Position numbers and translations under genes: made by a program
In this document: positions 722 through 63,654 of the stretch, in pieces
Layout of the letters: every line of letters begins with the position of its first letter
Numbering within the stretch: the stretch's first letter is position 1
The notes under the pieces: model-generated
What the model was told of the DNA's origin: nothing
What the model saw: only the letters and a program-made list of their open reading frames with translations
Databases searched by the model: none
Assembly: GCF_006345805.1 (NCBI RefSeq)
Contig: NC_043003.1
Span: 71,238,001-71,302,000, forward strand
DNA from: Octopus sinensis
Taxonomy: Eukaryota
Reading direction: 5' to 3'
Length of the DNA: 64,000 nt

Positions 722-898
722 GGACGAAGACGCCCGAATCACTTCGCCGAAAACTAAAGTCTGCTATGAAGCAGGGAGATAAAGATACACTGGACAAAGT
801 AATTCACGAATGCATCGCTGCTGGAATGCCAGAATTAGACGTAGACATAAGCGTCGCTCGAGACGTATTGAAAGACGTTAAAATTTCACCTCCAACAG
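722..898 (+). CDS. Repeat exon type A (unit 1)
   Basis: cag|GG...CAG|gtacat, 177 nt; [59 protein letters not shown]. Confidence 0.9.

Positions 899-63654: not shown

Follow-up and report, generated by a model that had tools for sequence, protein, structure and literature searches.

Introduction

Which gene carries an array of dozens of exons that all encode the same small helical module, and what kind of protein is made from it? The question was raised by a 64,000-nucleotide stretch of Octopus sinensis DNA (G000:C7:71238001-71302000; here called the window), in which a first-pass annotation made from the sequence alone had described 57 module exons and suggested a loose, unverified resemblance to hillarin/LTD-1/KY-like proteins. 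The exons are almost certainly the spliced internal array of a single octopus gene of the KY/hillarin/LTD-1 family. Membership of this family is ordinary; what stands out is the array of about 176 modules, its super-repeat, its splice variation and an MTBD-like tail. In the open-access literature (without supplements) no published account of the locus or of any of these four features was found.

Module exons in the window

An iterated HMM search of the six-frame translation of the window gave 62 matches, every one on the + strand; they comprised 57 full modules, four alternative-frame artefacts overlying the same exons as true module matches and one relic (Table 1). The top match in the reversed-sequence control reached only E = 0.074. 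All 57 module exons are flanked by AG/GT and have phase 1-1, a symmetry by which any exon or block can be skipped in frame, and their lengths are 174 nt (45 exons), 177 nt (ten), 171 nt (one) and 168 nt (one). Joined end to end they encode 3,312 amino acids without a stop codon. The earlier description of 57 intact same-strand phase 1-1 exons of 168-177 nt, with more than 3,300 encoded residues, was thereby borne out; the exons are all intact, but exons 1-16 are four copies of a four-exon unit of 2.23 kb, and the number of distinct sequences is accordingly 48, not 57. The motif positions said to be conserved were recovered as AR in 55 exons, PE[LI] in 51, E[CS] in 45, [KR]D[KR] in 30 and the strict G[MY]PEL in 23.

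Past the first 9 kb the introns could be aligned solely across pieces of interspersed repeats (405 bp or less), and apart from these the reported lack of alignability holds. Interspersed repeats are common to several array introns, and the intron after exon 54 contains, at 57969-58500, a decayed fragment that resembles a LINE reverse transcriptase when the ORF list is inspected by eye. An Rfam scan of the window gave no matches and no nested gene was found among the 24 window ORFs of at least 110 amino acids.

Table 1. Module exons and related features in window coordinates. Each of the 57 exons is based on a module profile match and AG/GT at phase 1-1; the class was assigned from residue type and linker.
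Feature	Class	Position	Strand	Remark
2.23-kb unit, last four of 16 near-identical copies, four exons each	A, B, C, B	722..8836	+	
Exon 1	A	722..898	+	
Exon 2	B	1100..1273	+	
Exon 3	C	1586..1759	+	
Exon 4	B	1954..2127	+	
Exon 5	A	2956..3132	+	copy
Exon 6	B	3334..3507	+	copy
Exon 7	C	3820..3993	+	copy
Exon 8	B	4188..4361	+	copy
Exon 9	A	5198..5374	+	copy
Exon 10	B	5576..5749	+	copy
Exon 11	C	6062..6235	+	copy
Exon 12	B	6431..6604	+	copy
Exon 13	A	7433..7609	+	copy
Exon 14	B	7811..7984	+	diverged copy
Exon 15	C	8297..8470	+	copy
Exon 16	B	8663..8836	+	copy
Exon 17	B	10533..10706	+	
Exon 18	C	14247..14420	+	
Exon 19	B	14738..14911	+	
Exon 20	A	16685..16861	+	spliced to exon 21
Exon 21	B	17388..17561	+	spliced to exon 22 or 23
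Exon 22	C	18611..18784	+	in X4 contig, skipped in X13
Exon 23	B	19077..19250	+	spliced
Exon 24	A	19859..20035	+	spliced
Exon 25	B	20465..20638	+	spliced
Exon 26	C	21102..21275	+	spliced
Exon 27	B	21537..21710	+	spliced
Exon 28	A	23046..23222	+	spliced
Exon 29	B	24312..24485	+	
Exon 30	C	27256..27429	+	
Exon 31	B	28122..28295	+	
Exon 32	A	28578..28754	+	
Exon 33	B	29989..30162	+	
Exon 34	C	30492..30665	+	
Exon 35	B	30997..31170	+	
Exon 36	A	31462..31635	+	
Exon 37	B	31981..32154	+	
Exon 38	C	32315..32488	+	
Exon 39	B	32888..33061	+	
Exon 40	B	34245..34418	+	
Exon 41	C	34816..34989	+	
Exon 42	B	35490..35663	+	
Exon 43	A	36177..36353	+	
Exon 44	B	36818..36991	+	module used for single-module fold prediction
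Exon 45	C	37371..37544	+	
Exon 46	B	38085..38258	+	best match of one Argonauta module
Exon 47	A	38584..38760	+	best match of one Argonauta module
Exon 48	B	39580..39753	+	
Exon 49	C	41489..41662	+	
Exon 50	B	46417..46590	+	
Exon 51	A	46843..47013	+	
Exon 52	B	47361..47528	+	
Decayed relic of module exon		48436..48516	+	27 aa between stops; outside the 57
Exon 53	A	52575..52748	+	
Exon 54	B	55133..55306	+	in P0001, P0003, P0004 and P0175
Exon 55	B	60803..60976	+	
Exon 56	C	61609..61782	+	
Exon 57	B	63481..63654	+	

Extent of the array

The array is open at both window ends, as had been stated; in the 384 kb of sequence examined it runs from window -104,386 to +80,797 (about 185 kb). All 150 scored genome matches to one module (173 candidates) fall in this single locus. 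The total is about 176 modules, of which 112 lie outside a tandem block and 64 within it; the block consists of 16 copies of the four-exon 2.23-kb unit between window -25,897 and +8,836, the last copy being more diverged. Outside the block 110 of the 112 modules are intact in this assembly, and the remaining two lack an acceptor (at -64.1 kb) or carry a frameshift (at -61.1 kb). The rule of one exon for one domain, which holds for all 57 exons of the window, fails at two open frames upstream of it (L012:2609-2953 and L012:5252-5596), each containing two modules without an intervening intron, which suggests that a C-B pair lost its intron and was duplicated afterwards.

The block copies are 95-99.7% identical to each other. 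Owing to deletion-biased indels in the middle copies, 13 of the 48 block exons that precede the window are broken, whereas the 16 within it are all intact, a pattern from which we infer an unpolished long-read consensus; the copy number is therefore uncertain, and the block is possibly a copy-number variant or an assembly problem. The predicted full chain with both ends amounts to 11,363 amino acids, or about 7,900 if the block is counted as one copy. Were the long isoform made, it would be among the largest proteins known and built from a module without a Pfam family.

Downstream of the gene an EF-hand-like exon on the + strand (window ~+138,400) and a C2H2 zinc-finger ORF on the - strand (+153,700 to +154,800) were noted by eye.

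Identity of the gene

The module search led to the O. bimaculoides protein XP_014780069 (P0001), and the tail of P0001 led to the Argonauta hians protein P0004. A Pfam scan of P0004 identified PF01841 (Transglut_core) and three copies of PF23265 (215.8 bits) and detected no LIM domain; no signal peptide was obvious by eye at its start. Hillarin and LTD-1 in the strict sense possess an N-terminal LIM domain. PF01841 scored 25.1 bits in P0004 and 27.2 bits in P0107, with a cut-off of 23. P0004 maps to the locus collinearly and on one strand: five exons at window -146.6, -124.0, -116.2, -114.4 and -111.2 kb (73-94% identity; 90-92% for those of the PF01841 region) are followed by ten modules and then by three exons at +81.8, +83.2 and +84.9 kb. 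The octopus genome itself contains three PF23265 matches above cut-off directly upstream of the array (G000:C7:71123636-71124724), and a 14-codon exon sits between this head and module 1.

Extension of the locus beyond the window thus located a KY head upstream and a C-terminal domain downstream, and the gene order reads transglutaminase-like domain, three KY-type Ig domains, charged helical stretch, about 176 modules, C-terminal domain. Head and array are contained in one gene model in P0004, P0107 and P0175; the head is joined to module 1 in the database gene models P0107 (O. bimaculoides) and P0175 (O. vulgaris, 2,069 aa). In the ESM Atlas the whole protein fell into KY/TG-like clusters, and an O. 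bimaculoides ortholog fragment carries the name 'kyphoscoliosis peptidase-like, partial'. About seven KY-like loci are distributed over five contigs of the genome, and the array is present at this one only. The closest paralogues, P0005, P0006 and P0007, have heads that are 42-43% identical and an acidic tail with a terminal hydrophobic, possibly membrane-spanning stretch, and are without modules or an MTBD-like domain.

The head architecture, one transglutaminase-like domain plus three KY Ig domains, is like that of the KY/hillarin/LTD-1/Cyk3 family. Within the transglutaminase-like domain the triad retains only its Asp, other residues standing in place of the Cys and the His, whereas in four aligned amphibian KY-like relatives, in which no tail modules were detected, the His is present in all four and the Cys in three. 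With the nucleophile gone, the chance that the gene encodes an active transglutaminase or peptidase on a long arm is negligible, even though PF01841 scores above its cut-off. An inactive triad has likewise been described in Cyk3, whose transglutaminase domain binds Rho1 (PMC3718969); the same paper puts Drosophila hillarin at the cleavage furrow and describes an actin-like pattern for LTD-1. KY is described as a protein of the Z-disc that belongs to a filamin C network and has no demonstrated enzymatic activity (PMC6078408), and leech hillarin is located at the axon hillock (PMC3081291). A 'kyphoscoliosis peptidase' is named among the proteins of octopus skin mucus in PMC11431876, which does not specify the paralogue.

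Because the relatives KY, Cyk3, hillarin and LTD-1 are cytoskeletal, and in view of the gene anatomy, a cytoskeletal linker role was considered. By this analogy the protein would be, on balance and with modest confidence, a non-enzymatic two-ended linker, the length of which would be set by exon inclusion of helical beads. Its head would attach to an anchor in the cytoskeleton, by analogy with KY and filamin C at the Z-disc.

A separate observation is a weak match between the KY-type transglutaminase-like region and FAP246, a protein of the ciliary central pair (PDB 7N6G chain 6E; E 0.016, 0.0012 and 0.0004), which is another microtubule-associated context.

Origin of the module

Pfam scans of ten modules and of P0001 and P0002 gave nothing above cut-off, and the module that the first-pass annotation could not name therefore matches no Pfam family at that level. 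The best Pfam scores, B12-binding_2 (E 0.001) and CHIPS (E 0.0008), were dismissed as generic helices, and PF24398, a precomputed entry for P0001, did not reappear when hmmscan was run. A PDB sequence search with the module profile returned only designed helical proteins and partial matches (E 0.003 or worse). The spectrin repeat was ruled out, since the octopus unit is 57 aa long compared with about 106 aa and has no spectrin Pfam match.

Among 20 further KY-like relatives the module profile matches tail units in five at E 0.002 or better, namely chiton P0015 (E 1.4e-10), P0013, corals P0014 and P0011 and oyster P0009; abalone P0122 contains six module-like units. Alignment of the module with the helical tail units of invertebrate KY-like proteins gave an hhalign probability of 93%. 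Profile comparison thus shows descent of the module from the one or two tail units of other invertebrate KY-like proteins, and the family resemblance suggested in the first-pass annotation proved to be sound: the array lies inside such a gene and its module profile matches chiton and coral tail units. That annotation had not recognised the two ends of the gene, the ABCB super-repeat, the skipping of an exon or the dynein-MTBD-like tail. Chiton P0015, Capitella P0010, coral P0014, oyster P0009 and abalone P0122 share the order KY head, helical units, C-terminal domain. Whereas these relatives have one or two units (abalone six), mostly without Gly linkers between them, in the octopus gene Gly linkers, a separate exon for each module and a super-repeat have been added, which makes it a clear case of expansion from a one- or two-copy tail unit to a giant exon array.

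Giants of the titin, nebulin and spectrin/dystrophin type have exon-encoded modules, super-repeats and splice-tuned length, with repeats of 35 aa in nebulin and 106 aa in spectrin. The octopus design is similar, but its unit is a 57-aa three-helix bundle and not an Ig/Fn3 domain, nebulin repeat or spectrin repeat, and no sequence relationship to these giants was found.

Long arrays of a similar helical repeat without a Pfam family also occur in P0030, P0116, P0158, P0165, the Rhodelphis marinus myosin P0050 (about 18 tail stretches matching the module profile) and the protein P0092 of the dinoflagellate Polykrikos (seven). The per-unit similarity of the protist repeats to the octopus module is weak (hhalign probability 32%) and Gly linkers are absent from them, leaving homology uncertain.

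Selection and super-repeat

Selection and pattern statistics were calculated on 116 non-redundant modules. Identity at codon positions 1, 2 and 3 is 52, 63 and 37%, respectively; mean pS is 0.75 (saturated) and mean pN 0.42. Of the 116 nearest pairs 35 escape saturation, and their median dN/dS is 0.25. These codon statistics show the modules to be under purifying selection, in keeping with the long-term selection on the protein claimed earlier. Orthologous modules in O. bimaculoides models are 87-100% identical. In a FastTree phylogeny of 57-aa units (support not assessed) all ten Argonauta modules, mid-array ones included, have octopus modules as sisters, which suggests that the array is older than the octopus-Argonauta split. 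A further 102 divergent fragments, none of which reaches 75% identity to an octopus module, are interspersed among the octopus modules in the tree (FastTree, support likewise not assessed); they include both module types described below and presumably derive from arrays in other, probably cephalopod, genomes.

The relic exon and gaps in the repeat pattern point to turnover within the array, and together with the near-identity and breakage of the tandem block they would be expected if exon amplification had been mostly neutral, or the assembly inflated, so that module number is without function. Such an origin is very unlikely, and for the old array it is largely refuted, given that 110 of 112 non-block modules are intact despite saturated synonymous sites and that the modules are spliced and conserved one to one across species.

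Module identity peaks at lags 2 and 4. Two module types, distinguished by the residue after EC (Glu versus small/hydrophobic), alternate in 104 of the 115 steps along the array, compared with a mean of 58 and a maximum of 76 after shuffling, and type and linker combined yield an ABCB super-repeat. Class B is Glu-type, in most cases with a Gly linker, class A hydrophobic-type with a Gly-poor linker and class C hydrophobic-type with a Gly linker.

Super-repeats of nebulin and A-band titin match filament periodicity. In the same way each octopus module might bind a partner and the ABCB unit match a filament period, the chain then lying along the filament as a ruler. Strict two-type alternation and a four-module period that were retained while synonymous sites became saturated would fit such a ruler, as would conserved surface-type positions (e.g. 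E31, C32, E39 and R48) and single-module fold matches to TPR/MIT-like binding units, although the latter are generic (Z up to 7.5). The alternation is, however, broken by skips (a B-to-B join in X13 and the P0001 and P0175 models), and about three quarters of the linkers (82 of 116) are Gly-rich and predicted to be disordered. A lattice-binding ruler is on these grounds doubtful, though it deserves to be weighed, and the two-ended linker is preferred; there the bead chain between head and tail would act as an extensible spacer.

Transcripts and splicing

Window 27200-37000 is present in 20 of the 24 runs listed, the RNA status of the runs being a guess. Exonic 31-mers make up a fraction of 0.22 of this segment; in 15 probable-RNA runs the fraction of its words present was 0.18-0.24 in 11 (including 0.19 in X12), about 0.5 in two and 0.15 in one. 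Splicing was examined on 16500-23500, which covers nine of the roughly 176 modules, in four probable-RNA runs (X3, X4, X5 and X13). All eight predicted introns were seen as GT..AG joints at the predicted sites in contigs of X4, X5 or X13 (three studies), one joint having a short side of just 26 letters, so that joins between array exons are present in probable-RNA contigs. An X13 contig joins 17561 to 19077 and thereby skips exon 22; X3 gave unspliced contigs, and a transcript of full length was not encountered. A contig from upstream exons at -37.7 and -35.8 kb had a depth of 29-3,486 versus 2.5-26 for the window junction contigs, a difference that is a hint only, as contig depth cannot rank parts of one gene; it would fit window exons that sit in a rare isoform. 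The upstream block with the high-depth contig is the one used by the 16-module model P0175.

Database entries for the locus are fragments or short models, mostly 'uncharacterized', and the giant form is hidden in them, the locus being cut up or shortened to pieces of 2-27 modules. The full-length models P0175 and P0004 have 16 and ten modules, and P0001 and P0003, which are partial, have 27 and 24. P0004 and P0175 share modules 1 and 2 and then those at 55133, 73884, 76045, 77168, 79302 and 80627, but have different middle blocks; other sets are missing from P0001 and P0003. Exon 54 (55133) is in all four of these long models, which reach the C-terminus, and is therefore likely to be constitutive. 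The simplest reading of the model differences is block-wise alternative splicing, in which case the ten modules of Argonauta need not equal its genomic count.

Taken further, the same model differences, the exon 22 skip and the depth hint for the upstream block could mean that the giant is never abundant and that the array serves as a library of cassettes, from which tissues pick module blocks around a core of about eight modules to give isoforms of 1,700-2,500 aa with differing binding specificities. This is considered unlikely: consecutive joins across all nine tested exons indicate that long runs are transcribed together, and the skips in the models may be errors of annotation at so repetitive a locus. 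For the preferred linker, exon inclusion would likely set the length of the spacer, the phase 1-1 exons allowing in-frame skipping.

Predicted structure

A single module (exon 44, 106 aligned sequences) was predicted to form helices at residues 4-16, 20-33 and 36-53 with pLDDT 85. In an AlphaFold model of the four terminal modules plus tail (17 sequences) the modules have pLDDT 85-96 and the linkers less than 50; the pTM of 0.35 could also stem from the shallow alignment of 17 sequences. In this model the final module passes into a degenerate unit through an unbroken helix, an arrangement shared with the ancestral tail. A Foldseek search with it gave no match at E 0.001 or better. The modules are thus predicted to be separate three-helix bundles on flexible linkers, much as the first-pass annotation had envisaged.

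C-terminal domain

A profile of six invertebrate tails aligns to the octopus C-terminus over 214 positions (E 2e-28). With an MTBD-only profile of the last 120 positions, built from seven non-cephalopod relatives, the octopus tail scored 38-45 bits and 500 shuffles at most 5. These profile matches establish homology between the C-terminal domain and the tails of the chiton, annelid, coral, oyster and abalone relatives.

The tail family profile matches dynein heavy chains at E 7e-11. PF12777 was found below cut-off in three of seven proteins scanned; searched singly, one relative matched PDB dyneins at E 7e-5 and P0010 at E 5e-7, and P0004, the cephalopod protein, gave no dynein match on its own. 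Of the top 50 fold matches, four fall on tail residues 277-412, all to dynein stalk/MTBD (Z 6.8-7.4, rmsd 3.5-4.2, 112-121 residues aligned) and on a low-confidence part of the model (pLDDT ~40-70). The ESM Atlas gave no usable match for the tail region. Profile and fold matches (E 7e-11; Z ~7) point to the dynein stalk MTBD (PF12777; PDB 8I3J, 3ERR, 6L4P and 5AYH), and a dynein-MTBD-like fold is predicted for the C-terminal domain. Unlike dynein, the octopus protein has no motor domain, and its tail is divergent and below the Pfam cut-off; the PP motif is lost and the net charge is acidic (13 K+R, 16 D+E). Judging from these features and from the lack of a dynein match in P0004, microtubule binding by the octopus tail may have been lost. 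In the linker proposed here the tail would bind another structure, possibly microtubules.

On a speculative view, octopods would have a titin-scale all-helical spring of up to about 11,000 aa with a KY pseudo-enzyme head, 8 to about 170 splice-tuned beads and a motor-less dynein-type tip, an independently evolved giant elastic linker that connects microtubules with the contractile cytoskeleton, and the hillarin tail of invertebrates as a whole would be a borrowed dynein MTBD. If true, a helical spring tuned by splicing would be a candidate component of cephalopod tissue mechanics.

The MTBD-like tail of invertebrate KY/hillarin-like proteins is a family-wide lead that is independent of the array, and no paper linking these proteins to such a tail was found in the literature searched. 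It provides a testable hypothesis for their binding partner. MTBD-like C-termini that are better conserved and more basic than in octopus are present in P0009, P0010, P0011, P0013, P0014, P0015 and P0122 from corals, an annelid and molluscs.
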